A DNA stretch of 64,000 nucleotides from an uncultured Planctomycetota bacterium (GCA_963845755.1 CAWJTV010000014.1:27371-91370); one strand, 5' to 3'. Shown: positions 4,953-31,004, numbered from the stretch's first letter. Made by a program: numbers and translations. Notes: generated by a model from the letters alone, not told the origin.

Positions 4953-6467
4953 ATGACGCCCACAACCCATTCCTCCCGTTTCCGTCCCAATCCGATGCCG
5001 TGCGGCCGCACCCGCCGAGAGTTCCTCTGGGAGGTCGGCGGTGGGTTTGCCGGCCTGGCGCTGATCGACCTCCTCTCGAGGCAGGGCTTCTTTCCGGGCG
5101 TCGCTGCGGCGGAAGCCGCTTACGACAAGACCGCGAAGGGGTCGGCGATTCCGGCCGGGTCGCATGTGCTCGCACCCAAACCGAGCCACTTCCCCGCCAA
5201 GGCGAAGCATGTCGTTTTCCTCTTCATGAATGGCGCCCCGAGTCAGGTTGACACCTTTGATGACAAGCCGGCGCTGGAGAAGTACCACGGGACAGCCTAC
5301 CAAGGAAAGACGCCCATCGGTTCCAATGGACGCCCGGTCGGTCTCCTGATGAAATCGCCGTTCCGTTTCACCAGGCATGGTCAGAGTGGGCTGGAGATCA
5401 GCAGTTTGTTCCCGCATACTGCTCGGTTCGCGGACGACCTGTGCGTGATCCGCTCGATGTATACCGATACGGCCGCGCACGCCTCCGGCTGTCTCCAGAT
5501 GAACACGGGTAGTGTGGTGATCGGTAAGCCGAGCCTGGGTTCCTGGCTGAGCTATGGGCTGGGGACCGAGACCGAGGAACTTCCCAGCTTCGTGGTGATG
5601 ACCGATCCGCGCGGGGGTCCGATCTCGGGCGCCTCGAACTGGGCGGCGGGGTTCATGCCGGCCGCGTATCAGGGGACCCTGTTCCGCAGCAAGGGTTCGC
5701 CGCTGCTGGACCTGGCGACGCCCGAAGGAACGAGTTCGCGTTCCCAACGGGATACCCTGGATCTGATCCAGGACCTGAACCGCAATCATCTGAAGGCTCA
5801 TCGCGACGAAACCGAGTTAGCCGCCCGGATTCATTCTTACGAGCTGGCGTTCAAGATGCAGACGGCCGCCGCCGCGGTCGTCGATCTGGACCGAGAGGAC
5901 GCACGAACCCGGACGCTTTACGGTCTGGACGATGAACGGACTCGAGACTTCGGCAGCAAATGCTTGCTGGCCCGACGACTCCTGGAGCGCGGCGTGCGGT
6001 TCATCCAGCTCTACTCGGGCGGCGGCCACCTCGAGGACACCTGGGACGGGCATTCCGACTGCATCAAGAACCACACGCTGCATGCCGGAGAGACCGACCA
6101 ACCGGTCGCCGCACTCCTCACCGACCTGAAGCGGACCGGCCTCTGGGACGAGACCCTGATCGTCTGGGGCGGCGAGTTTGGCCGCACGCCCACCAGTGAG
6201 GGCCTTAACAAACCCGGCCGCGACCATAACCCCTACGGATTCACCATGTGGCTCGCGGGTGGCGGAGTTAAGGGCGGCCAGGCCATCGGCTCGACCGACG
6301 AGCTGGGGTTCAACGCGGTGGAAAACCGTTGCCACGTCTCCGACCTTCACGCCACCATCCTCCACCTCCTGGGCCTGGACCACACGCGCCTGACGTATTT
6401 CTACCAGGGGTTCGACCATCGGTTGACCGGGGTTCGTGGCCAGGTCGTCACCCGATCTCTGGCGTGA
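4953..6467 (+). CDS. DUF1501 domain protein with Tat-like signal
   Basis: TRREFL motif, KAKHVVFLFMNGAPSQVDTFD, GGEFGRTP, GRDHNP; canonical partner of DUF1553 genes. Confidence 0.9.
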   Translation: MTPTTHSSRFRPNPMPCGRTRREFLWEVGGGFAGLALIDLLSRQGFFPGVAAAEAAYDKTAKGSAIPAGSHVLAPKPSHFPAKAKHVVFLFMNGAPSQVDTFDDKPALEKYHGTAYQGKTPIGSNGRPVGLLMKSPFRFTRHGQSGLEISSLFPHTARFADDLCVIRSMYTDTAAHASGCLQMNTGSVVIGKPSLGSWLSYGLGTETEELPSFVVMTDPRGGPISGASNWAAGFMPAAYQGTLFRSKGSPLLDLATPEGTSSRSQRDTLDLIQDLNRNHLKAHRDETELAARIHSYELAFKMQTAAAAVVDLDREDARTRTLYGLDDERTRDFGSKCLLARRLLERGVRFIQLYSGGGHLEDTWDGHSDCIKNHTLHAGETDQPVAALLTDLKRTGLWDETLIVWGGEFGRTPTSEGLNKPGRDHNPYGFTMWLAGGGVKGGQAIGSTDELGFNAVENRCHVSDLHATILHLLGLDHTRLTYFYQGFDHRLTGVRGQVVTRSLA

Positions 6468-17750: not shown

Positions 17751-18740
17751 TCAACTCGCCGACGTTCCGCTCGCGGCACCGACCATCGCCGGCTGAAGCA
17801 TGAGGGGTCCTCGTGGACTTGCGCGAATGGACCGCCAGGCCGCCCAGGCGTACAAACCCACAGCCCGCATGGCGGAGACGATCGCCAATGCGATGAACAA
17901 ACCGTACACCATATGCTCGACCAGGAGCACGCCGTAGACCGCTGCGATGGCCATGGCGAATAAAGCCTGGCGTAGTGGCTTGACGGGCGTCGTTGCCGGG
18001 TCGGGGATCATGTACAGGGTAAAGACCATGAACGCCGCACTCGTCATCGGCGTCAGAGGCACGATCCATGACGTTCCGGAGTACCAGCTCCGCACTTGAC
18101 CCTGGATGACAAAGGCGACCAGCCAGGTCAGAACCATCGTAAGTCGGCCCGTGAACAACCCATGAACGACGAGGCCCGTCGCCAGCACCAGGCCGGGCAG
18201 CGCCCAGTGCCACATCCCGGTCAGGTTCTCCGTGAAGTGATATGGGGGTGCCACCCCGATCGACGGGAACAAGAGCAGCGTGGCGACGATTCCCAGGTTC
18301 GACGGGTTGAAGATGTGCTGTGTTTTGCCCTCACCCACGGGTGCGCGGAACATCACCTTCGAGCAGATGGAGAGGCCGGCGGCGAACATCACCGGGATCA
18401 GCCGATCGCTGGGATACAGGATCATCGTGACAGCCAGACCCGGGATGATGGCAGGCGGCAGAAAGTTGAGAAGGTCCGCCCACGAGCCGGCGTACCGCGG
18501 CTTGCGGCCGCTGGCTCGCGCGTCGATCCACTCCAGCAGGAACTGGAGGCTGATGGCCGTCGCTAGCCCGACTATCGGCTGGATGTGTGACTGCTCGAAG
18601 CCGAGGAACATATGGCCGAGGATGTTCCAGACGATGAGTAAAATGGTGAAGTACCACAGGGCGAAATATCGACGCAGGGCGCTGCGCCTGGGGTAAAACT
18701 GCAGGGTCGTGATCGCGTCGGCTGTCGTTGCTGTCGTCAT
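17751..18740 (-). CDS. unbU: UnbU-like (enediyne cassette E5-type) membrane protein
   Basis: ALRRYFA...NILGHMFLGFEQS, HIFNPSNLGI, APPYHFTEN, LYMIPDPATTP; ATG overlaps the upstream stop (TGATG at 18742-18738). Confidence 0.8.
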   Translation of the reverse strand: MTTATTADAITTLQFYPRRSALRRYFALWYFTILLIVWNILGHMFLGFEQSHIQPIVGLATAISLQFLLEWIDARASGRKPRYAGSWADLLNFLPPAIIPGLAVTMILYPSDRLIPVMFAAGLSICSKVMFRAPVGEGKTQHIFNPSNLGIVATLLLFPSIGVAPPYHFTENLTGMWHWALPGLVLATGLVVHGLFTGRLTMVLTWLVAFVIQGQVRSWYSGTSWIVPLTPMTSAAFMVFTLYMIPDPATTPVKPLRQALFAMAIAAVYGVLLVEHMVYGLFIALAIVSAMRAVGLYAWAAWRSIRASPRGPLMLQPAMVGAASGTSAS

Positions 18741-20737
18741 CAAAGCGCTCCCTTCCGCTCCGTCGGCCAACCGAGTCGGATGGTGTGCCAACCCGCCTTC
18801 AATGGAAACGTTTCCTCATGCGGATTGCCGTCCGGGTCCCGCCAACGAATCTCGACGGGCGCTTCGGTGATTGTACCGAGACCCAGGTGAACATCCGGGG
18901 CACGTTTTCCGGCGTTGCCGGTTCCGCCGTCGATCTGGGCCACCCGCTTACGCCCGTCCGGCAACCGGATGGCCACCGCGGCGCCGATGGCCGGCCGGCT
19001 GGGATTTTCCGCGACGGGATGACCGATACCGGGCTCGACGATCGTTGCCTTTCCCTTTTCCAGAGGGAGCAACAGGCGCAGCCCCATGAAGTTGCCGGGC
19101 TTGGGGCACTCATTGTGGTAAAAGTAAGACGGCTGCCATTGATTCGCGAGGGCGAAATCGAGCCGGCCGTCGCCGTCCACGTCGGCCAGGGAGATGCCGC
19201 GCGTTAGCATCGCCTCGGACATGGACTGACCGTCCTGCAACATCAGTTTGGGGGCCACGTCGTAATAGCGGCCATCCCTGGCCCTGGCGAAGAAGGCGAA
19301 GGTTTCATGGCCGCTGAGGTCGTCGCCAGGCTGGAGGCTCGGCCAGAACTTCGGGTTGTGCAAGAGTTGGTTGTTGCTGGTGCCGAGGCTTTGTAATTCG
19401 GGCCACTTGTTGATTTGCCCCTTGATGAAGCCATTCGCCTGGAGCGTCTCCAGGACGCCGTCGTTGTTCAAATCCGCCAGCCGGCAGTCCCACGACCAGC
19501 CACTGCGTGACAGGCCCAGTTCTTCGCTGGCTTGCCGGAACGGAGCAATCCCGTCCTTCATGCGTTCGGTCTGGCCGGTGTTCAGCCACAAGAAATGGCT
19601 CTCGGTCAGGGCCCAACTGGAAGTGAGGTTGCTCACGTAGATATCCAGCAACCCATCGCCGTTGATGTCGCCGAAGTCCACGCCCATGCCTTTGAAGGAG
19701 TCCTGGTTAATTACGCACGAGGCCGGCGTGTCCATCGTGCGCTCTCCGTGCAAGGCCGCGAACTGAAAGCGGCCGGAGGTCGAGCGATTGTGCAGCAGGC
19801 GGTCGGGGCCGAAGTCGTTGGAAACGTAGATTTCCGGCAGCAAGTCACCGTCGAGGTCGGCGGGCCCGATGGCAAAGCTCCAGCCGTGGGTCAGGTCCTC
19901 GGCGATCGCATCCGTCTGCTGGTCGAATCGGACCGTCGGATGCGGGCCCGAGGTCGCGCCCACAAACCGGAAGAATCGGAGTCCACCGCCGTTGCCGGAC
20001 CTCGCCAGCGAGTCATGCAAGCTTTGGAATCCCTGGGCATTCTCGTCCAACATTCGGGAGCCGTCGGGGAAGTAATTGCCGATGATCAGATCGAGGTGTC
20101 CGTTGCCGTCCAGGTCGGCCACAGCCGCCGTCGAGGAGTACCAGCGGTCGTCGCCCTTGAGCAATTCCTGCGCTTGGAACTCGGCGGCCGAGGGCGCGGT
20201 CTTCGGGTCAGCCGGCGTTCTGCGCAGATAAACGATCGGGGTACGGCCCCAGTGGACGATGAGCACGTCCATCAGACCATCCTCATTCAAGTCGGCGATC
20301 AGGGGGCCCTGAGGGCACATCGTCGCGAGGTTCCAGTTGGGGAACGACGATCCGGGGTCGAGTGCGAATGTTTCGTAACGCGCCCCGGTCTCGGGGACAG
20401 GACCGCAATTAACCTGGTCGGTGCGTGGATCGATCCAGACGACGTCGTTTTGCAGCCCGTCGCCGTCCAGATCGCCCAGCGCCACGCTGGCCCCGAGTGT
20501 GGACAGGTAGGCTCGGATGTGCCGCATGCTGGGGTGGACCTTGCGGACATACTTGTACGGCGGGTGGTTGGCCACTTCGGGCAGCGGCGTCCGGCTAAAC
20601 CGGAAGTTGTTGACGACCTCTTCCGACTCGGCCCTGGAGAGTGGCCGCTCGCGAGTCATGACGTACAGGCTGATGACAATGGCCGCAGACACGAGCAAGG
20701 TGGCTCGGCGCCGGAACCATCCAGGCGGTCGGTTCAT
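18740..20737 (-). CDS. unbV: CRTAC1/ASPIC-UnbV family FG-GAP repeat protein (enediyne cassette E4-type)
   Basis: Several DLDGDG/DINGDG repeats, SNDFGPDRLLHN, DSFKGMGVDFGD, SGWSWD; C-terminal AIGAAV...AQIDGGTG...VHLGLG (ASPIC/UnbV); N-terminal anchor or signal. Confidence 0.85.
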   Translation of the reverse strand: MNRPPGWFRRRATLLVSAAIVISLYVMTRERPLSRAESEEVVNNFRFSRTPLPEVANHPPYKYVRKVHPSMRHIRAYLSTLGASVALGDLDGDGLQNDVVWIDPRTDQVNCGPVPETGARYETFALDPGSSFPNWNLATMCPQGPLIADLNEDGLMDVLIVHWGRTPIVYLRRTPADPKTAPSAAEFQAQELLKGDDRWYSSTAAVADLDGNGHLDLIIGNYFPDGSRMLDENAQGFQSLHDSLARSGNGGGLRFFRFVGATSGPHPTVRFDQQTDAIAEDLTHGWSFAIGPADLDGDLLPEIYVSNDFGPDRLLHNRSTSGRFQFAALHGERTMDTPASCVINQDSFKGMGVDFGDINGDGLLDIYVSNLTSSWALTESHFLWLNTGQTERMKDGIAPFRQASEELGLSRSGWSWDCRLADLNNDGVLETLQANGFIKGQINKWPELQSLGTSNNQLLHNPKFWPSLQPGDDLSGHETFAFFARARDGRYYDVAPKLMLQDGQSMSEAMLTRGISLADVDGDGRLDFALANQWQPSYFYHNECPKPGNFMGLRLLLPLEKGKATIVEPGIGHPVAENPSRPAIGAAVAIRLPDGRKRVAQIDGGTGNAGKRAPDVHLGLGTITEAPVEIRWRDPDGNPHEETFPLKAGWHTIRLGWPTERKGAL

Positions 20738-21438: not shown

Positions 21439-22207
21439 TACGACACCGGAGTCGGGCAGACGAAACGCAACGGATGGGGAACGAGAGATCCGACGACGGC
21501 GGCCGACATCGGTCTGCTCGATCGACTAACAAGGCTAATCGAAAGGATCGCCGCGATCAAGGACCTTCAATGCGGAAAAAGTCGTTCGGCCCGGCGGCGC
21601 GGTCGGCCCGCTACCGACGATGGCGTTTCCTGAAGTCGAACCAGCCGCTGGAAACAGTGGCCTCCCCTCCTGACCGAGAGAAGCCCGACGCTACTCGGCT
21701 CGACTTCCGGGAATCTCTCGGATGATGCCCAGCGCCCGTTTCGATCCGGGGCTGATTCCACGAGAAAATGGATCGACGCGGCATTATTCAGGATTCAGCA
21801 TTATGCGATGAAAGGTTTCCGAGTTCGAGTCACTTTCTCCTTTCTCGACCTTACCTGACACTATGACATGATTCTTTTCCAGGAAAAATGAACTGACGAT
21901 ATATTTCTTTATGAAACCGATTTTCCGGCCACACCGATTCTCCTCCGGGAATCGGCGGTAATGCCTTGTATGTATTGATATTACGCCAAATCCAAGACCA
22001 TTCAGTCATCTCCCCTTCGGTGGCTGTCCCCGTTGATCTCTGGAAGATTTTCCTTGACTCGATGCTCGTGCGTGTCAAGAATAGGAGTGGCGCAGGTGGT
22101 ACAATAGAGTAATCTTATGTGCCGAAAATCATGGGTTTCTCGGCCCCGATTCTTGCTCTGAACACCGACTGCGTAACACCTGTCTAACTCGATGGCGAGG
22201 CGATTCA

Positions 22208-22318
22208 TTCTTCCGGCACCCGGTCTGGGTGCGGGGTCTGTTGTCGATGTGCGCCTTGGACCTTCTTCCGGGCACCCGGTCTGGGTGCGGGGTCTGTTGT
22301 CGATGTGCGCCTTGGACC
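22208..22318. repeat. Tandem duplication, 55 + 56 bp, containing the protease start codon
   Basis: TTCTTCCGG(G)CACCCGGTCTGGGTGCGGGGTCTGTTGTCGATGTGCGCCTTGGACC at 22208-22262 and 22263-22318, differing by one G. Confidence 0.95.
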
Positions 22319-23172
22319 TTGTCAAACTCACGGATTTAATGGAACGCAGTCGCGGCAACGCGGGAACGACAGTCGGTCTCATTGATGGACCAGTCGCCGT
22401 GGACCATCCCGACCTCGCAGCGGCGATTGTCCGAGAGATCCCCGGGCGCCTGAGTGGACGCTGCGTCCGCTCCGACAGCGTCGCCTGCGGGCACGGGACC
22501 TTCGTGGCCGGGGTCTTATCTGGCAAGAGGGGGGCGCGGCGCCCGCCATCTGTCCCGGTTGCACCCTGCTGGTTCGCCCGATCTTTGCGGAGACCGGTTC
22601 CGGGGACGGGTCACTGCCCAATGCGACATCCCAGGAACTCGCGGCGGCGATCATCGACTGCGTCGAACGCGGGGGTCCATGTGGTCAACCTGAGCCTCGC
22701 CTTGGCCCGACCCTCGGCCCCGGGGATTCGGGAACTGGACGAGGCGATTGATTACGCCCTTCGTCGTGGTGTACTCGTCGTGGCGGCGGCGGGGAATCAG
22801 GGTGCCGTGGGCAGTTCGACCATCACGCGGCACCCGTGGGTGATCCCCGTGGCGGCTTGCGACCTCCGTGGGCGGCCGACTCCGGAATCGAACCTGGGGA
22901 GTTCCATCGGGACTCGCGGGCTGAGAGCACCGGGCGAGGACATTACCAGTCTCGGGGCGGCCGGTCCGCCGTTCCGATCAGGGGGGACCAGCGTCGCGGC
23001 AGCGTTCGTGACCGGTGCCGTCGCTCTCTTGTGGTCGGAATACCCCGCCGCAACCGCGGCCCAAATCAAGCTCGCCGTCACCGGGTCCGGGGCGCCCAGG
23101 CGGGCGACGGTCGTCCCGAGCCTTCTGAACGCCTGGGCGGCGTATCAAGCCATGTCGGAGCTTTCCCTCTAA
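22303..23172 (+). CDS. PatA/PatG-like subtilisin (S8) protease, stand-alone catalytic domain
   Basis: Triad motifs VGLIDGPV, CGHGTFVAG, GGTSVAAAFVTG and oxyanion AAAGN. The segment AICPGCTLLVRPIF...ELAAAIIDCV lies in a shifted frame between compensating indels near 22530 and 22666. No signal peptide. Confidence 0.85.
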   Translation: MCALDLVKLTDLMERSRGNAGTTVGLIDGPVAVDHPDLAAAIVREIPGRLSGRCVRSDSVACGHGTFVAGVLSGKRGARRPPSVPVAPCWFARSLRRPVPGTGHCPMRHPRNSRRRSSTASNAGVHVVNLSLALARPSAPGIRELDEAIDYALRRGVLVVAAAGNQGAVGSSTITRHPWVIPVAACDLRGRPTPESNLGSSIGTRGLRAPGEDITSLGAAGPPFRSGGTSVAAAFVTGAVALLWSEYPAATAAQIKLAVTGSGAPRRATVVPSLLNAWAAYQAMSELSL

Positions 23173-23187
23173 CGTAGGAGGACTGCG

Positions 23188-24138
23188 ATGGAGCAGACAG
23201 ATGTCGTTGGAGCAGGGCGCGATCATCCCATACACGATGGCGATGCGTCAGCACTTGGACCTGTCTTGCCCGCGGGCACCGGGGCAACGGCCGTCCCTCA
23301 GTCGGCGGGCGGCAAGTGCGGCTGCGGATGCACGGGGGGTGCCAAATCCGAGGGCGAAGCCGCGGTGAATTATTCTTTTGTCTATGCGTTGGGTCGGGTC
23401 GATCCGCGGTTCCCGTCACCGGGTGTGGAGAAGGAGTTCACTCAGGCCACAGGTCGGTCCGGGACAGCCGGACTGTCCGACCGCCAGGCTCTTCATGCGG
23501 TACTCTCAAAGCGGGAGAACCTCTACCTGGCCCGGCAACTCTGCTGGGTGCTCTCCATCGGGAGCGTGGAGACGTACATCCTCCGGCCGGGCCATCCGGG
23601 CGACTTCCACCTGTTGATCGAGGCGGTCCGCCCGTCGCCACGCCCCACCGACATTGACGTCGTCATCGGCGTGCGCGGGCCGATCGCCCCGCCACAGGCA
23701 TGCAACGGGCTGATGGTCCCTGTCGTCGCGTTCGACCAGATATACTCTTTCGACGTGGACTCTCTGATCGGGTCGATCCCCCCGCCGCAGGGACAAGACG
23801 CGCAGAAATTCCGGCCGATGGCGGAAGAGGTCTTCTGGAGGATCATGCAACTGGCCGACAACGCCGGCGCGATGGACGAACACCGCGCGCTGAATTACCT
23901 GGCCGTCCGCTACGACGCCATTTACGCCAAGGCAGCCGAGTACTATGGACAGAACTACGCCTTGACGGCCGTGGACGTGCTGCCGTCGCGCCTGAGCGGC
24001 ACGCGCAATCTGGTCAACGTGATCTTCTCATTCGCCAACCGCGCGACCGACTTCACCGAGAAGGTCTTCGTCCGGGTGGACGTGACAGAGCCGTTCCCGT
24101 TCTTGGTCACCAAGCTGTCTCCGTATTACGACCATTGA
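23188..24138 (+). CDS. Cyanobactin protease C-terminal DUF protein (PatG_D/PatG_C-like), no protease domain
   Basis: AGGAGG RBS; CGCGC, FVYALGRV, YLARQLCWVL, CNGLMVPVV, NAGAMDEHRALNYLAVRY, SRLSG, VRVDVTEPFPFLVTKLSPYYD match the PatA/PatG C-terminal DUF. Confidence 0.9.
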   Translation: MEQTDVVGAGRDHPIHDGDASALGPVLPAGTGATAVPQSAGGKCGCGCTGGAKSEGEAAVNYSFVYALGRVDPRFPSPGVEKEFTQATGRSGTAGLSDRQALHAVLSKRENLYLARQLCWVLSIGSVETYILRPGHPGDFHLLIEAVRPSPRPTDIDVVIGVRGPIAPPQACNGLMVPVVAFDQIYSFDVDSLIGSIPPPQGQDAQKFRPMAEEVFWRIMQLADNAGAMDEHRALNYLAVRYDAIYAKAAEYYGQNYALTAVDVLPSRLSGTRNLVNVIFSFANRATDFTEKVFVRVDVTEPFPFLVTKLSPYYDH

Positions 24139-24295
24139 ACGATCTCCCGTTTCGCATGGTTGCCCGTTCGCATCGGGACTTCTCGTTCGGGTTTCGGATC
24201 GAGGGCCAGGAAAACGTCGGGCGTCGGAACGAATACCCTTCCACGGGAACTTTGCGCCGAGCCTCAAGTTCCGCAATACTACTAAGGATTACGAG

Positions 24296-24523
24296 ATGAA
24301 CATGCCTGGGTTTTCTGCGGATGCATCGTTGTTCAGAGCACGCACGGACTTCCGTGCGAGCGACGCCATGCAGGGCGCGGGCGGCTCCCACCGCAGTTCC
24401 GACGCAGTGGTTCCGTCCTTCGGCATCAATCCGTTATGTCGTGCCTGGGAGGCGTGTTGTCTCCGCACAGGTAGTGCCTACTGCTGCAATCACTATTACG
24501 GCCTCTGCGTCAGCCCGGTTTGA
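24296..24523 (+). CDS. Putative precursor peptide 1 (75 aa; core with 6 Cys)
   Basis: AAGGA RBS; leader MNMPGFSADASL...DAVVPS followed by FGINPLCRAWEACCLRTGSAYCCNHYYGLCVSPV. Confidence 0.8.
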   Translation: MNMPGFSADASLFRARTDFRASDAMQGAGGSHRSSDAVVPSFGINPLCRAWEACCLRTGSAYCCNHYYGLCVSPV

Positions 24524-24571
24524 ACTTCCGTGAAACCGGACGCGGTCGGTCGGCCATTGGAGGTGAGTACC

Positions 24572-24787
24572 ATGAGACTGCCAGGGTTCACCGCGGTCAC
24601 AGCGCTCGAGAGGACCGGAACGTCTTACCGGGAGGAATTAAACCTCGTCCAAGCCGGGGGGGCCGTGCTGCCCGCCACCCTCCCTGGCTGCTACGCCCGT
24701 TGCCTGGCGTCTGCCGGAGACGATCCTTTCGCCAACTACAACTGCCGGTGCATCTGTTACGGGCCGCCCCACTGCCATCTCATGTGA
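24572..24787 (+). CDS. Putative precursor peptide 2 (71 aa; core with 6 Cys)
   Basis: GGAGGT RBS before ATG 24572; leader MRLPGFTAVTAL...GAVLPA followed by TLPGCYARCLASAGDDPFANYNCRCICYGPPHCHLM. Confidence 0.8.
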   Translation: MRLPGFTAVTALERTGTSYREELNLVQAGGAVLPATLPGCYARCLASAGDDPFANYNCRCICYGPPHCHLM

Positions 24788-24816
24788 GGGTCGGTGGGAG
24801 CAACGTCGGTTCATCG

Positions 24817-24847
24817 TGACTCCGACGCCGAGGGGGCGTCGGAGTCA
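24817..24847. other. 13-bp perfect hairpin between precursor genes 2 and 3
   Basis: TGACTCCGACGCC-gaggg-GGCGTCGGAGTCA; no U tract. Confidence 0.8.
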
Positions 24848-24886
24848 TCACACTGACAGATCATTGTGAGAAAAGGATCGTGAACG

Positions 24887-25150
24887 ATGAGAATGCCGGG
24901 ACTGACCGCACGGGCCTCGCTCGACACGCCAGGCGATCGCTACCAAAGCGGCGGGGGTCACAACCCCCTCTTACGAATCCTCGACCCGCATTCGATTCAG
25001 CCCGCATTCTCATGCGGCCCGTGTACATGCAACCGGTTTTGCAGTACACGACCTCCTTACGCTTGCTACTATACCAATTGTCAGCAGCTCTGTTTCGTCC
25101 CTCCCGCCAACCTCATTACCGTGCCTTGCTCGCCTCCCTGGATGCGGTGA
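24887..25150 (+). CDS. Putative precursor peptide 3 (87 aa; core with 8 Cys)
   Basis: AAAGGA RBS; leader MRMPGLTARASL...HSIQPA followed by FSCGPCTCNRFCSTRPPYACYYTNCQQLCFVPPANLITVPCSPPWMR. Confidence 0.8.
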   Translation: MRMPGLTARASLDTPGDRYQSGGGHNPLLRILDPHSIQPAFSCGPCTCNRFCSTRPPYACYYTNCQQLCFVPPANLITVPCSPPWMR

Positions 25151-25220
25151 AAGGAGGCGGAACGGAATGCCGCGACGTTAGTGCACAAACCCCGTCATCT
25201 GAACACGCTGTAGCATCGAC

Positions 25221-25350
25221 TCATGGTCCCAGATTGGTAATGCTCTCTGGTGGAGGGTGGGTGCAACCCACCATAACCCCAGACCGGATAGTGGGTTGCA
25301 CCCACCTTACAGATCGACTGAAAACGAGCCTCACCAATCTCGGCCCATGA
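25221..25350. repeat. REP doublet (REPIN-like) nested in 25-bp outer inverted repeats
   Basis: Inner GGGTGGGTGCAACCCAC...GTGGGTTGCACCCACCTTAC (25252-25310); outer arms 25221-25245 and 25326-25350 with 4 mismatches. Confidence 0.7.
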
Positions 25351-25715
25351 CCATGAGCCACCCCTTTTTCCCCCTCTCGCCACGGCCAACGGCAAGCCCT
25401 GGCCGCGACACTTCGGGAACATCCCGGCCGGTTGCCGTAATCCGAGCTCCCGGCCCTGTCCGCAGTCTCCCGACATAAATTTTTTTCGTTTTTTTTCATG
25501 TCGTGGTTGTGGCAAGAGTTGCGACGAAGAAAACGCCCAGCCACGCCGTAGGTGCATTAACGAAATCCCCAAGTTGAGGCATCCTGATAGATAGGTGACG
25601 TTGGGCGAAGCCATCCGCGACTTTCAGTCGGCCAAATGGCACCGCCCCCGTCCGAAGCCCAGTCCTCGCCATCGGAGTTCCCTCGGTCGATCCCTGTCAC
25701 TTCCTCGCTCTTCGA

Positions 25716-25903
25716 AATCGCGCGAACGAACCCACCAACCTCCCGATTGAAAAGCCGCGCCAACGAAGCCACGATTGTAGCGAATATATCGATTATGCGG
25801 GTCAGCCTCGACCTCGGCACCGGAATCGCGCGAACGAAGCCAAGTTGACGCGGCGGGAAGCCGCGAACGAAGCCACGATTGTAGGGAATATACCGATTGT
25901 GCC
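25716..25903. repeat. About 105-bp imperfect direct repeat built from AACGAA(G/C)CCA units
   Basis: Units at 25725, 25762, 25833 and 25866; AACGAAGCCACGATTGTAGnGAATATAnCGATTnTGC occurs twice. Confidence 0.75.
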
Positions 25904-26211
25904 GACTGAGCCGCCGGCGGACGCTGTCCCCTCGTCGACAAGGTTACGAGATCACGAGATCGCGATCAGGCCGGGAATTACGGTATCGCGGGTCAAGCCA
26001 ATCCTGCCGTTTGCCCAGGGCGATCCGAGCGGTCAACGGTACTCCATGCAGTTTGCACAGACCCTTGAGACGTCCAGCCCTGCCGGAAGTCCTCTCGAAG
26101 ATCGTGGTTGGGGATTCCCTCCCGGGGCGTTACAATGCGTCTCGATCCGGAAGCGATATCAAAACCAGGTCATGAGGACTCGCCCGGGGTCGTCAACGAA
26201 TGAGGTCAGGA

Positions 26212-26844
26212 ATGAGCGGCGAGGAAGACGGTTCGGTCACGTGCTGGCTTGGGAATCTCCGGGAAGGCGATCTCGCGGCGGCCCAGCCGCTGTGGGAGCG
26301 TTATTTTTCCCGGCTGGTCGTCGTGGCACGCGGGAAGTTGAAGCGCCTGCGGCGGACGACGGCCGGCGAGGATGAGGAAGACGCCGCACTCAGCGCGTTC
26401 AACAGCTTCTGCGACGGAGCGGCGCGAGGGCGGTTCCCCCAGTTGGCCGACCGCGATGACCTGTGGCGCTTGCTGGTCGTGATCACGGCGCGGAAGGCCA
26501 TGGCGCAGGCGCAACGAGAAGGGCGGAAGAAACGCGGGGGCGGTCGCGTCGTGGACGAGGCGGCCCTCTTCGGTCCGGGCGCCGGCGACGACGGGTCGAT
26601 GGCGGGCCTGGAGCGGATCGCCGGCGATGGGCCGACACCCGAGTTCGCCGCCATGATGGCCGAGGAGTGCCAGCGGCTTCTCGACTCGCTCGATGACGAT
26701 GCCCTCCGGCAGGTCGCCCTCAGCCGGATGGAGGGCTATACCAACGACGAGATCGCCGACCAGCTCGGCTGCGCCCGCCGGACGATCGCACGCCGTCTGG
26801 ACCTGATCCGCAAGACCTGGATGTCGGTCGTCGAGGTGAATTGA
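26212..26844 (+). CDS. ECF-type sigma factor (planctomycete kinase-associated type)
   Basis: GSVTCWL, AAQPLWERYF, DEEDAALSAF, DRDDLWRLLVVIT, EGYTNDEIADQLGCARRTIARRL. Confidence 0.9.
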   Translation: MSGEEDGSVTCWLGNLREGDLAAAQPLWERYFSRLVVVARGKLKRLRRTTAGEDEEDAALSAFNSFCDGAARGRFPQLADRDDLWRLLVVITARKAMAQAQREGRKKRGGGRVVDEAALFGPGAGDDGSMAGLERIAGDGPTPEFAAMMAEECQRLLDSLDDDALRQVALSRMEGYTNDEIADQLGCARRTIARRLDLIRKTWMSVVEVN

Positions 26845-28721
26845 TGTCCCCCGAGCGCCTGGAAGCGAATCCCGACGACTCGCTGGCCCGCGCCCGATCC
26901 GTCAACCGGGCCTGCGAGCAATTCGAAGCCGACTGGCGCGGCGGCGGCCGACCGCGGATCGCCGTCTTCCTCGAATCCTCGGCTCCGGCCGACCGCGACA
27001 CGATGTTCCACGAGCTGCTCGCGCTCGAGCTGGAGCTCCGGCGGGAACGGGGGGACAATCCCCCTCGGGACGAGTACGACGCGGAGTTTCCCGACCGGGC
27101 CGAGGTGGTCGCAACGGTCTTCTCCGAGCTCGAGAAGGAACGGGATCCTCAGGACGGGACGCGAGCAAATCCCCGGCCGGCGGACCGACCTCCCAACGGC
27201 TATGGTCATGAGTCGGGAGATACCACGGTCCCTTATGTTCAGCATGATGCGACGCCGGACAGCCGGCCTCAGCCGAGCATTGGCGGCTACGAGTTGATCG
27301 AGGAGATCGCTCGGGGTGGGATGGGGGTCGTCTATCGCGCCCGGCATCAGGGATTGAAGCGACTGGTCGCGCTCAAGATGATCAAGTCGGGCTCGATGGC
27401 CAGCTTCGAGGAGCGCGAGCGGTTCCTGCGGGAGGCCGAGCTGGCGGCGAACCTCGACCACGCGAACATCGTGCCGATCTACGAGGTCGGCGAACACGAC
27501 GACCGCCCGTACTTCAGCATGAAGCTGATCGAAGGGACGAGCCTGACAAAGCAAGCCAGCCGGTTCCGTGACGACCCCCGGGCCACGGCCTGGCTGGCCT
27601 TGACCTTGGCCCACGCGGTCGATTATGCCCATGGACGCGGGTTCCTTCACTGCGACCTGAAGCCATCCAATGTCCTGCTCGACGGCCGGGGGAAGCCGTA
27701 CTTGACCGACTTCGGCCTGGCCCGTCGGACCGGCGTGGACAGCTCGCTGTCGATCAGTGGGGCCATCCTGGGAACCCCGAGCTACATGGCTCCCGAACAG
27801 GCCACCGGCTCTCGCGCGCGGCTCGGGCCGGCCACCGACGTTTATGGCCTGGGCGCCATCCTCTACGAGGTCCTGACCGGCCGTCCTCCGTTTCGGGCCC
27901 CCACGATCATGGAGACCGTGGTTCAGGTCCTCGAGCGCGATCCCGCGGCTCCCCGCGTCCTGCGCCCGGAGATTCCTCGAGAGCTGGAAGCGATCTGCCT
28001 GAAGTGCCTGGAGAAAGCCCCCAAGGACCGTTATGCCTCGGCCAAGGCGCTCGCCGACGAGCTGGAGAACTACCTCCACGGTGATGGAATCGCCGCGACC
28101 GGGATCGTCTCGCGCTTCCGCCGCTGGAACCGTCGCGAGCCGGAGCTGGTCGCACGGTTGGGCGGGCTGGGTCTCATGGCCATCATCACTCAGATCAACT
28201 TCCACCTGTCTTCGCACCCCGACTGGCGACTGCACTGGACGATCGAGGTGGTCCTCGCGCTCTGGGCGATGCTCGCCCTGCTCTTCCAGGTGCTCATGCG
28301 CTCGGGATTCCGGTCGGATCGGGTCCGCGTCCTCTGGTCGGCCGCGGACATCATCTGCCTCACGATCGTGACCAAATTGCTCGAAAAGGTCGAGATCGGC
28401 CCGATCGACGGGGAGAGGTTGGTGCGGATCGAGACGACCCTTCTCGTGGGTTACCCGCTGTTGATCGCGGCTTCCGGGCTCTGGTGGCGAGTCCCTCTCG
28501 TCTGGATCACCACCGTGATGGCGACGGTGGCCTTCGGTTGGCTCTACCTCGATTCCGCCCTGTGGTGGCACGAAGGACAATTCTTCTGGCGTCCTAGCCC
28601 GGAGCTAGTCCACCCGAATATCTTCATCGCGGGGCTCGTATTGACCGGCTTCGTCGTCGTTAGACAGATCAAGCGGATCATGGCGCTGAGCCGTTACTAT
28701 GAGCATCGCCCCGATATCTGA
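26844..28721 (+). CDS. Ser/Thr protein kinase with C-terminal transmembrane helices
   Basis: ARGGMGVVY, VALKMI, HCDLKPSNVL, DFGLA, GTPSYMAPEQ, DVYGLG; start overlaps the ECF stop (TGATG). Confidence 0.92.
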   Translation: MSPERLEANPDDSLARARSVNRACEQFEADWRGGGRPRIAVFLESSAPADRDTMFHELLALELELRRERGDNPPRDEYDAEFPDRAEVVATVFSELEKERDPQDGTRANPRPADRPPNGYGHESGDTTVPYVQHDATPDSRPQPSIGGYELIEEIARGGMGVVYRARHQGLKRLVALKMIKSGSMASFEERERFLREAELAANLDHANIVPIYEVGEHDDRPYFSMKLIEGTSLTKQASRFRDDPRATAWLALTLAHAVDYAHGRGFLHCDLKPSNVLLDGRGKPYLTDFGLARRTGVDSSLSISGAILGTPSYMAPEQATGSRARLGPATDVYGLGAILYEVLTGRPPFRAPTIMETVVQVLERDPAAPRVLRPEIPRELEAICLKCLEKAPKDRYASAKALADELENYLHGDGIAATGIVSRFRRWNRREPELVARLGGLGLMAIITQINFHLSSHPDWRLHWTIEVVLALWAMLALLFQVLMRSGFRSDRVRVLWSAADIICLTIVTKLLEKVEIGPIDGERLVRIETTLLVGYPLLIAASGLWWRVPLVWITTVMATVAFGWLYLDSALWWHEGQFFWRPSPELVHPNIFIAGLVLTGFVVVRQIKRIMALSRYYEHRPDI

Positions 28722-28764: not shown

Positions 28765-30078
28765 TCATTGAACCCCGATCGCACCGATGAGCCGAGCATG
28801 GGCGACGCGATAAGCGATCTCCGCCTGGATCGATTCCAGTTCGGATTTGGCCGTCGCAGCCTTCGCCGTCGCGAGGCCGGCGGCGTCCTTGTGTCCGCGT
28901 TCCGCGTCCTTCCGAGCCTCTACCATTTCGTTGGCGAGACCGAACGCCTGCCGGGCCTGTTCATAACCGACGTAGGCTTGGACGGTTTCCAGACGCACCT
29001 TCTCGATGGTCGCCCGCACGTTCCAAGAGGCCTGGGCGATCTGCGTTTCCCGCTGGTCCTTCACGCGCCTCCGCTTGCCCCAATCGAAGAACGTATAGGA
29101 AGCCGAGACGCCGAAAGCCCCGAAGTTCGGCTGGATGTAACTGGCCGATGTCTGATTGAAATAGGATCCGAAGATGTTGACATCAGGAATAAAATCGGCC
29201 TTGGCGACCTTGAGGGCTGCCCGTGCTTTTTCAACCGTGGCCTCGGCTTCCTGCACCAGTGGATTGCACCTCAGCGCGAGCTCGACGGCCTCCTCCGCGT
29301 CGCTGACCGGAACGGCAGGCGGTAGGGGCTGGACGAGCTCGAAGCGGGTGGAGGAAGGCATACCGAGCAGGCTGTTGAGCTGTTCGGTCAGCTCGGTGAG
29401 CTGCGATCGCACCTGAAGCAAGGCTTGCTGAGCCTCGATCATGGCCACCCGGATCTCGGGGTTCGAGCTGGTCTGGACAAACCGCTGCGCGACTTGCACC
29501 TGGAGGGAGAGAGCCGCCTCGATGCGCTGGGCACCGTACATGGCGTGGAAGGCTTGCGCAACCCCGGATAGGAGATCTCTCGTCCCCTTGTCGAGCTGGG
29601 CCTGTGCGATCTGCGCATCGGCGCGGGCGAGCTGGACGGCCGCATTGACCGCGATGAGTTTCGTGATGGGCTGAGCCAGCGTGAGCATCGTCAGGGAACT
29701 GTCTTGATTCACGACCGTGGCTGCGATCGTCTGGCTCCCCGGCGGCAATAAGCCGAGCTGGCCGGTACGGAAGGTCGCGACTTTCCCCAGGTTGTCACTG
29801 AAATGGAAGTAGTAGAAGTTGCCGAGGAGCTTCGGGAAATAATCCCTTTTCGCGGCATCGATCGCGATCGACTTCTCCTCCACGCCCAGTCGCCCCAAGG
29901 TGAGGCCGGTATTGTTGGCCAGGGCAATCCGCTGAGCGTCTTCCAGGGCAATCCGCAAAGGAGCCGAACTTGGCGGAAGGGCGGTCGTCGGTATGCGAGC
30001 GTCTTGGGCCATGACCCAGACACCAAGCACCTGAAGACTGGTCAAGACGCCGAGAAACCACGCGCTCGATCGTGCCAC
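28765..30078 (-). CDS. TolC-family outer-membrane efflux protein
   Basis: Signal peptide, LEDAQRIALANN, AKRDYFPKL, LTLAQPI, AKADFIPDV, ASYTFFDWG. Confidence 0.8.
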   Translation of the reverse strand: MARSSAWFLGVLTSLQVLGVWVMAQDARIPTTALPPSSAPLRIALEDAQRIALANNTGLTLGRLGVEEKSIAIDAAKRDYFPKLLGNFYYFHFSDNLGKVATFRTGQLGLLPPGSQTIAATVVNQDSSLTMLTLAQPITKLIAVNAAVQLARADAQIAQAQLDKGTRDLLSGVAQAFHAMYGAQRIEAALSLQVQVAQRFVQTSSNPEIRVAMIEAQQALLQVRSQLTELTEQLNSLLGMPSSTRFELVQPLPPAVPVSDAEEAVELALRCNPLVQEAEATVEKARAALKVAKADFIPDVNIFGSYFNQTSASYIQPNFGAFGVSASYTFFDWGKRRRVKDQRETQIAQASWNVRATIEKVRLETVQAYVGYEQARQAFGLANEMVEARKDAERGHKDAAGLATAKAATAKSELESIQAEIAYRVAHARLIGAIGVQ

Positions 30079-30084
30079 CTTAGA

Positions 30085-31004
30085 TCATTTCGGTGTGATC
30101 TCTTCCGTCTGACATTCAGTGAAGTCCACCCCGGGCTCGCCCTGATCCAATGCCTCGTCGAACGCCCGCGCGATGTCCTCGTAGAGGTGCGGCTGGTTCT
30201 CCTTGACCGCGAGCGCGTAATGGCCACCCCCGTCGATGATCTTGGCGGCGATGTCTTTCTGACAACCCATGGCGTCGATGGTCACCACGGCCCCGTTGAG
30301 GTCCAGCATCGCGAGCAAGTCGGGAATGGCCGTAATTTCGTTGGATTTGGCGTCGGTGGCCACTTGCCCCAAGGTCAAATGGTTCACGACCGCCCAGGCG
30401 CTGACGACATGCAGGGCCGAGCGGCCGACGGTGCGCCGCGCCGCGCCGCGTTGGGCCTTACCGTCGATGGCGATCGGCGTCAGCTCGGGCGAATCGGTGG
30501 CGACGGGGGTCAATCCCGTTCGCTCCATCAGCGCCGTCATCCAGGAGGAGAAGCCCTTCTGAAAGGCCAGCGGGTCGAGCAGGCAGAAGACCCGTCGAAA
30601 GGTGTCGTGCGAGGGGATGCCGCCGGGCAATTCGAGGAAGGTCTCGAGCCAGTCGCTCTTGGAGTGGGCATAATCGGCGATCTGCACCCAGTTGTCGGCG
30701 CCGCAGAACACGGCGAGGGTGGCGATGAAAATGATCTCATCGAGTCGGTGGATTCGCCCCTGTTCGCGGCGGGGATCGGGCAAGTCGGCGAAATGATCGA
30801 GGAGTGAGATCGGGTCTTGGGCGGGAGTAGCGGAGGCCGAATCCGAGCTGACGGTCATGGTGTGGACGTCCCTGAAAAGATCGAGTTATCCTGGCGATCG
30901 ATGGTACAAAAGACGTCCGTTTCCCGACCAGCCGGACTGTAGGATCGAGGCGAGATGCTCTTTCCCAGAACACTCAGATATCCCAGGCTGGTGCGTAAGC
31001 CCTG
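30085..31004 (-). mobile_element. Truncated ISAs1-family insertion sequence (transposase 30858-30085, C-terminus missing)
   Basis: LPDPR, GIPSHDTFRRVF, IAIDGKAQRG, KSNEITAIP, VTIDAMGCQKDIA, LAVKENQ; ends at 257 aa. Probable left end CAGGGCTTACGCA at 31004-30992. Confidence 0.85.

Follow-up and report, generated by a model that had tools for sequence, protein, structure and literature searches.

Leader-dependent maturation of ribosomal peptides is a known kind of process, and the system described here, found in a 64,000-nt stretch of DNA from an uncultured Planctomycetota bacterium (C14:27371-91370; hereafter the window, meaning that whole stretch), would be a further version of it. In precursors with Nif11/NHLP leaders, such as those of the prochlorosins, the leader has ~60–80 residues and a Gly-Gly end and is cut by C39 peptidase-ABC exporters. 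The conotoxin precursors of cone snails are eukaryotic and carry a Sec signal peptide, and the mature peptide is released by a subtilisin-like protease. In the cyanobactin systems the leader protease PatA recognizes the site G(L/V)E(A/P)S (PMC10885120), and the function of the cyanobactin DUF (domain of unknown function) was left open by the 2014 structure paper (PMC4259220). The window contains three small open reading frames (ORFs) that share an N-terminal leader and lie behind separate genes for a subtilisin-type (S8) protease and a stand-alone cyanobactin DUF protein. The leader and the two enzymes are near-obligately co-located, and the three ORFs, judged by their sequences, encode precursors of ribosomal cysteine-rich peptides whose family is very large and has no name. 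We propose, with a probability of about 0.6, that a split PatA-type protease, guided by the leader, frees disulfide-rich peptides from these precursors and that it would cut at h-x-P-[QAS]. The features concerned are the following.

22303..23172, + strand: PatA-like subtilisin (S8) protease, ~289 aa; PF00082, PatA/PagA relatives
22529..22675, + strand: out-of-frame segment within the S8 gene; conserved AAPAICPGCTLLVRPIF...IIDCVERG in the +2 frame
23188..24138, + strand: stand-alone cyanobactin DUF protein, PatG_D + PatG_C, 316 aa; Pfam and fold match
24296..24523, + strand: precursor 1, 75 aa, 6 Cys; leader MNMPGFSADASLF...AVVPS followed by a Cys-rich core
24572..24787, + strand: precursor 2, 71 aa, 6 Cys; leader MRLPGFTAVTALE...AVLPA
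24816..24848, + strand: GC-rich hairpin in the gap between precursors 2 and 3, perfect 14 bp, no U-tract after it
24887..25150, + strand: precursor 3, 87 aa, 8 Cys; leader MRMPGLTARASLD...SIQPA

The likeness to cyanobactin systems lies in the S8 protein, whose nearest solved structures are PatA/PagA, in the shared DUF fold, in the cytoplasmic nature of both proteins, in the adjoining precursor genes, and in the putative h-x-P-[QAS] site, which resembles the PatA site (PMC10885120). In contrast, the protease and the DUF are here separate ORFs (22192..23172 and 23188..24138), each with its own start and Shine-Dalgarno sequence, and both proteins fall far under the cut-off of the NCBIfam PatA/PatG model TIGR03895 (S8 78 bits and DUF 16 bits against 421); the S8 protein is related to the members of that model and is not itself one at the curated level. 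The cores are long and Cys-rich rather than cassettes of 6–20 residues, and the carriers are many phyla and archaea, not cyanobacteria. Among 171 members of the leader family, G(L/V)E(A/P)S occurs in 1, AYDG in 2 and LAELSEE in none, and the three window peptides contain none of them. No heterocyclase, macrocyclase, oxidase or prenyltransferase was found in the window flanks, the genome loci or 14 long loci from metagenomes; no search for them was made in the remainder of the genome. In its logic, the system resembles the opening step of cyanobactin maturation, and it lacks most features of cyanobactin systems.

With the Nif11/NHLP leaders the system shares one conserved leader joined to many unrelated cores, several precursors per locus and orphan copies elsewhere, and it differs from them in its protease, in the GG-type leader end (GG or GA in 3/171 members) and in having no linked C39-ABC exporter, the C39 peptidase-ABC transporter not being conserved in the loci. 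The conotoxins offer an analogy, a conserved N-terminal pre/pro region followed by a hypervariable disulfide-rich mature peptide; the sequences are unrelated, and nothing in the analysis marks the peptides described here as toxins. The combination of a constant leader and a variable core had been taken in an earlier note on this DNA as the hallmark of RiPPs, peptides that are made by ribosomes and modified post-translationally. That combination is present and agrees with the general definition of RiPPs, but the label itself is provisional, because no modifying enzyme is conserved in the loci, where S8 and DUF are the only conserved enzymes, and because some leader-bearing proteins reach 327–361 aa.

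Precursor genes and the leader family

The region from 22.2 to 25.2 kb holds five co-directional genes on the + strand, for the S8 protease, the DUF protein and the three small ORFs, and the closest named relatives of the window proteins are from Gemmataceae. A GGAGGA Shine-Dalgarno sequence precedes the DUF gene, and a purine-rich Shine-Dalgarno-like sequence lies 7–15 nt upstream of each precursor ORF. For precursor 2 the ORF listing gives a GTG start at 24530; the ATG at 24572 has a GGAGGTG Shine-Dalgarno sequence ~7 nt upstream. The three N-termini read exactly as the earlier note had quoted them, from ATGs at 24296, 24572 and 24887, with the third stop ending at 25150, and their first 19–20 columns align without gaps under the pattern M-x-[ML]-P-G-[FL]-[ST]-A (motif 1). 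The claimed pairing of constant leader and variable cores is borne out by an overall identity of 29–31% that comes nearly all from the N-terminus, the remainder being unalignable, and the leaders do lack a hydrophobic h-region, a twin-Arg motif, LAELSEE and Cys, as stated there. The conserved part was put at 20 residues; this motif is real, but the conservation extends further and includes a second motif, [VI]-x-P-[QAS] (motif 2), present in the window as AVVPS, AVLPA and SIQPA, ~30–45 residues in and directly before the first Cys.

The suggested pattern search of small ORFs with M.[ML]PG[FL][ST]A, run on the 14.27 Mb genome (64% GC) translated in all six frames, gave five matches, and none in a reversed-sequence control. 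All five are ATG-started, Cys-rich small ORFs, three in the window, one on contig C33 and one on contig C36. The precursor on C33 is an orphan, and that on C36 follows a truncated DUF fragment, upstream of which is a gene for an IS4/5-family transposase. A sixth precursor (PGFGA; starts MSFPGFGAQNSLY), with 14 Cys, follows a second complete S8+DUF pair on contig C31. Just after the orphan on C33 is a weak second leader-like match (G000:C33:209906-209980, E 5.8e-4), possibly a decayed precursor copy. Small ORFs are easily spurious at this GC content, and the GC content at third codon positions of the three window ORFs (0.66–0.77) is only modestly raised, as would be the case if the resemblance had arisen by chance or the ORFs were not genes. 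That explanation is already refuted by the five matches against none in the control, by thousands of homologues with the motif at the N-terminus, by the conserved position and orientation behind the DUF gene, and by conserved cores in orthologues. Specifically, precursor 1 has a metagenomic orthologue (P0127) that is 80% identical, with the C-terminal 23 residues of the alignment identical, and precursor 2 has a relative (P0131) that is 47% identical, the core DDPF..NC.CICYGPP.C being common to both. The retention of core segments in these orthologues argues for selection on the cores. The core of precursor 3 has no close relative among the peptides from the profile search of the word-indexed protein collection.

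That search used a first profile from the six precursors of this genome, which led to 16 further peptides, and a leader profile of 44 positions, built from 22 precursors, was then run against 1.84 billion cluster representatives. It matched 3238 representatives at E≤1e-3, of which 24 also passed E≤1e-10, almost all of the matches starting at residue 1–9, and gave E-values of 7e-12, 3.3e-10 and 5.1e-12 for precursors 1, 2 and 3. In the family consensus motif 1 is MNMPGFTAEASLYKTSGHY, with [VI]-x-P-[QA] after it, and the window form is degenerate. Over 164 members the leader consensus is M-N-M-P-G-F-T-A-E-A-S-L-Y-K-T-S-G-H-Y, with P conserved in 163, G in 158, F in 162, A in 161, S in 156 and Y(+15) in 152. 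Motif 2, separated from motif 1 by a variable linker, takes the form h-x-P-[QA] in 125 of the 164 (VVPQ, VIPQ, VLPQ, VYPA, etc.), at a median of 32 residues after the motif-1 Pro, and 142 of 158 leaders are Cys-free. In Streptomyces the leader is compressed to ~22 residues (..PGFTAESSVRGAYGVFPAQ) and both motifs are kept.

The leader is covered by no model in Pfam or NCBIfam; none of their models matches the three window peptides or nine canonical ones, and in Pfam 0/149 family members match at E≤0.01. An ESM Atlas search with a canonical member led to unnamed clusters (best score 0.88). The literature yielded no description of the leader motif, the family or the system, with subscription journals and supplements outside the search, and the family is apparently undescribed.

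The 149 best leader-profile matches have a median length of 82 aa (range 38–361) and a median of 6 Cys; even Cys numbers are found in 113 of them and odd ones in 28 (binomial p 2.6e-13), and 8 lack Cys altogether. A high Cys content, with CxC/CxxC in the cores and in 97 of 120 DUF N-terminal tails, would also suit peptides that bind metal inside the cell, in the manner of metallothioneins or chalkophores, and become active once the leader is removed, and the carriers include methanotrophs and other organisms with a high metal demand. We regard this as very unlikely, given that the excess of even Cys counts (113 vs 28) and the hypervariability of cores rich in aromatic and hydrophobic residues suit diversifying, disulfide-stabilised peptides better, and that no metal-handling genes are conserved nearby in the 14 long loci.

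Co-location with two conserved enzymes

The link between leader and enzymes was followed in both directions. All 11 other DUF genes examined, two in this genome, five in three genomes of the phylum, one in an Ignavibacteria metagenome-assembled genome and three in Streptomyces, have a leader ORF directly downstream. Conversely, the pattern Mx[ML]PGFTAE was the sole criterion for the choice of 80 metagenome loci (one is without the leader by regular expression). The earlier note had tied the motif to the two upstream proteins and, far from being found mostly without them, the motif is accompanied by DUF and S8 in 24/24 of the loci with ≥2300 nt upstream of the first leader ORF; the DUF gene is present in 20/22 of those with 1000–2299 nt, and the end of a DUF gene in 14/33 of those with <1000 nt. 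The gene order in the metagenome loci is S8, DUF and then 1–6 precursors, S8 and DUF are separate genes in all 24 well-covered loci, all 190 leader matches have the same orientation, and a median of 35 nt separates the DUF gene from the first precursor. A scan of contigs with the DUF gave four loci.

The genome samples agree with this. Among 401 genomes of the phylum, the DUF occurs in four, the leader in five and both in four, the fifth leader genome having a single weak partial match. Among 201 Streptomyces genomes, 13 have the DUF and six the leader; all six leader genomes are DUF-positive, five of the six leaders adjoin the DUF gene, and the leader is found in none of the 188 DUF-negative genomes. 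Seven DUF-positive genomes are without a leader match, including three with weak partial DUF matches. Because the genomes are kin, these counts describe a pattern and give no test statistic.

Pfam scans of the window flanks, the genome loci and 66 ORFs of the 14 long metagenome loci found nothing conserved besides S8, DUF and precursors. The leaders themselves are free of export features, with an h-region (≥9 hydrophobic residues) in the first 45 residues of 0/171 members and an RR motif in 2/171. Readings of the leader as a Sec/Tat or double-glycine leader were rejected, such features being present in 0–3 of the 171 members and no transporter being linked. A different possibility is that motif 1 is a targeting or export tag for an unlinked secretion route, with the S8 protein acting as a dedicated signal peptidase. 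A cargo of ~20 to >300 residues suits a sorting signal better than a RiPP leader: the Ignavibacteria genome has leader-bearing proteins of 361 aa (52 Cys; L004:7026-8108) and 327 aa (40 Cys; L004:8232-9212) directly after its DUF gene, and another genome (G367) has one of 190 aa. The mostly even Cys counts imply an oxidising destination, and the absence of Sec or Tat features also fits a separate route. We nevertheless hold such a tag to be improbable, as no transporter co-occurs in the loci examined, as S8 and DUF are both predicted to have no signal peptide and no membrane segment, and as the monoderm, diderm and archaeal carriers share no dedicated secretion machine.

The S8 protein matches Pfam PF00082 (E 5e-21), and the solved structures closest to it are those of the cyanobactin N-terminal proteases PatA/PagA (4h6v, 3zxx, 4h6w; E ~5e-23). 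Its open frame is 22192..23172; we place the start at the ATG at 22303, because the homologues begin at its equivalent. There are 6825 of these at E≤1e-30, typically of 289–294 aa, and the catalytic D, H and S motifs are present in the window protein. The best NCBIfam match of the S8 protein is the mycosin of type VII secretion (E 1.3e-31). This candidate was set aside: its 110 bits are well below the cut-off of 278.75, no type VII secretion genes were seen in the loci examined, and in some carrier lineages no type VII system was seen.

The DUF protein matches PatG_C (1.4e-30) and PatG_D (1.6e-28) in Pfam. Its residues 1–60 form a disordered, variable tail with AVPQ...CGCGC, and residues 61–316 are highly conserved. 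An AlphaFold (AF2) model (pLDDT 72.5) has as its only clear structural match the PatG DUF, 4uvq (Foldseek E 1.5e-10; VIA-align Z 17.6 over 232 residues at 18% identity), and the next structural rows are OB-like folds with Z≤5.7, within the background of the tool. Since a sequence search of the PDB gave 0 matches, the relation to 4uvq is visible by fold alone. Among 8000 candidates, 7576 are homologues, 59–78% identical, and the proteins from Gemmataceae, Methylobacter, Desulfobaccales and Ca. Methanoperedens are ~59–67% identical to that of the window. Among 32 sequences from several phyla and an archaeon, the core has a mean column identity of 59% with ~40 invariant polar or aromatic positions (e.g., the DNAGATDEHRALNY block).

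This unusually conserved core, in the sole conserved partner besides the protease, would be expected if the DUF were the key enzyme, modifying or cross-linking the core or the leader by a new RiPP chemistry, with S8 only trimming afterwards; that PatG-DUF showed neither function nor binding in the published work (PMC4259220) leaves room for such a role. We consider this unlikely, since the fold is without enzyme relatives, 4uvq being followed by OB-like binding folds, since no cofactor-binding family was detected in Pfam or NCBIfam, and since the cores have only Cys in common, with no conserved target residue apparent.

In the DUF tails (window 23188-23367 and homologues P0001-P0120), h-x-P-Q is followed by CxC/CxxC within 10 residues in 68 of the 105 tails of ≥35 aa. 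This arrangement mimics the leader/core junction of the precursors, and the tail may be a pseudo-substrate or a metal site.

Proposed route of maturation

Based on these data we put forward a hypothetical route for the leader-guided release of the peptides. The precursor leader, of ~35–45 residues, has motif 1 at the N-terminus and motif 2 before the first Cys, and is followed by the hypervariable core. Motif 1 would serve as a recognition handle, bound by the DUF and/or the S8 protease, and S8 together with the separate DUF would constitute a cytoplasmic, split and distant form of the cyanobactin leader protease PatA. The S8 protease would cut the precursor at motif 2, and the freed core would then fold through disulfides outside the cytoplasm. 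From the genes we infer the cleavage site, the reader of motif 1, disulfide formation and export, as well as a biological activity of the peptides. The assignment of the putative cleavage site to motif 2 follows from its being the last conserved element before the first Cys, from its retention even in the shortened Streptomyces leader, and from its likeness to the PatA site (PMC10885120), with a hydrophobic P4, Pro or Ala at P2 and a small or polar P1. The AVVPS of the window fits a PatA-like site best.

Docking of motif 1 on the DUF, suggested in the earlier note, is an attractive idea, because no further partner is conserved and the DUF equals the handle in its degree of conservation. In a wider version, the DUF would read the PGFTAEASLY handle and hand the precursors to S8, and the whole would be a mobile, pan-prokaryotic "conotoxin-like" arsenal with cassette-swapped cores and the DUF tail as a pseudo-substrate, the exchange of cores using the DUF 3' end plus the leader as a recombination handle. 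The modules of a PatG_C fragment plus a precursor on contig C36 and in several metagenome loci fit the recombination-handle idea. Taken as a whole we entertain this wider version only tentatively and think it rather doubtful; if it were true, the ancestral function of the cyanobactin DUF would be revealed. A complex prediction with DUF residues 58–316 (32-row alignment) and a 45-residue leader (22-row alignment), run without controls, gave ipSAE values of 0.01 and 0.00.

Several observations weigh against the release of disulfide-rich peptides by a split PatA-type protease. The cleavage site at motif 2 is putative and drawn by analogy with PatA. According to PMC4259220, PatG-DUF binds neither native nor heterocyclised PatE by nuclear magnetic resonance and no function was found for it, a result that, by analogy, weighs against the DUF as the reader of the leader; the two DUFs are only 17–18% identical. 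The same Pfam scans revealed no recurrent transporter or exporter, thiol-disulfide enzyme, YcaO, radical-SAM or tailoring enzyme, so that export and any chemistry beyond proteolysis are left without explanation by the locus content. An odd number of Cys is found in 28 of the 141 Cys-containing members, and leader-bearing proteins of 327–361 aa far exceed the usual RiPP cores, and hence the handle is not restricted to cores of RiPP size.

Further points concern the window locus itself. Its leaders are divergent members of the family, the near-invariant E(+5) being replaced by D, V or R and Y(+9) by F, E or D. In addition, the S8 gene has a compensated frameshift between the G-runs at 22529-22534 and 22671-22675, with ~47 codons out of frame, as seen by three-frame translation, tblastn with four homologues and alignment with seven. 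The segment APAICP.C.LL.RPIF ... AG, conserved in 7/7 aligned homologues, sits in the +2 frame, where the open frame has an Arg-rich stretch. One of the G-runs seems to lack a base and the other to have one too many, so that the frame is restored downstream. The displaced segment is flanked by the catalytic His and the NLS motif; in subtilisins, this region contributes the substrate-binding strand. With this region out of frame, the window S8 protein as assembled is probably inactive, unless the frameshift is a sequencing artefact. Metagenome contigs from four runs supplied a few pieces of 150–265 nt at ≥99% identity on the DUF gene and the 3' end of the S8 gene, and nothing usable over the two G-runs or the precursor genes. 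The C31 copy of S8 is intact, and the C31 S8 and DUF proteins are ~58% identical to those of the window. Given the frameshift and the divergent leaders, the window locus may be impaired.

If leader-guided release by the split protease is correct, the family would rank among the largest peptide families that are defined by a leader and have neither a name nor a curated model; it comprises no fewer than 3238 clusters (at 50% identity), and its partner enzymes number in the thousands. Its carriers include Planctomycetota, Actinomycetota, Ignavibacteria, methanotrophs, relatives of sulfate reducers and Ca. Methanoperedens. It would represent a minimal two-protein maturation system, usable for making disulfide-rich peptides, and a large reservoir of uncharacterised peptide scaffolds. 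The locus also provides a clean genetic setting for the function of the cyanobactin DUF, here a separate protein with an obvious candidate ligand, and with the leader profile, small ORFs that often escape gene finders can be called systematically.

Spread and surroundings of the locus

The distribution of the system is patchy, at ~1% of the phylum sample and ~6% of the Streptomyces sample, and integrase, resolvase or transposase genes flank some loci. Together with the 59–67% identity of the DUF across groups, as judged from the sequences, this suggests that the system has spread horizontally.

In three Streptomyces loci (L005-L007) the DUF gene comes first, then the precursor and then S8; downstream, long open frames extend over ~4.7 kb, with no Pfam match on either strand. 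A fragment of the DUF 3' end, corresponding to part of PatG_C, often precedes extra precursors, as in L002 at 4967-5555 (contig C36), at L043:5765-6217 and L048:1554-1982, and in L061, L102, L089 and L063; on C36 the DUF fragment and the precursor form one open frame. These look like duplicated or captured cassettes of a DUF 3' end plus a precursor.

The surrounding intervals 26200-28721, 28765-30078, 30085-30858 and 18740-20737 contain an extracytoplasmic-function sigma factor, which overlaps a Ser/Thr kinase that has a membrane part at its C-terminus, as well as an outer-membrane protein of the OEP/TolC type, a DDE transposase and an FG-GAP/ASPIC protein; no gene among them recurs in related loci. 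Six soil-metagenome DNA runs contain small shares (0.05–0.12) of the window, and no RNA run is listed. A scan of 21500-25800 for promoters and terminators stayed at background level. The 99 nt from 24788 to 24886 around the hairpin have a predicted RNA fold of −42.4 kcal/mol (z −3.36; 0/200 shuffles equally stable), and the hairpin at 24816-24848 may be a transcript-processing or stabilising element. The 1-kb gap after precursor 3 (25150-26200) is a patchwork of short dispersed repeats that are present on many contigs, including direct repeats of 22–41 nt at 25713-25902 and an inverted repeat of 24 nt (25251-25274 / 25288-25311); the genome has 18 copies of its 13-nt core, one of them after the C31 locus.

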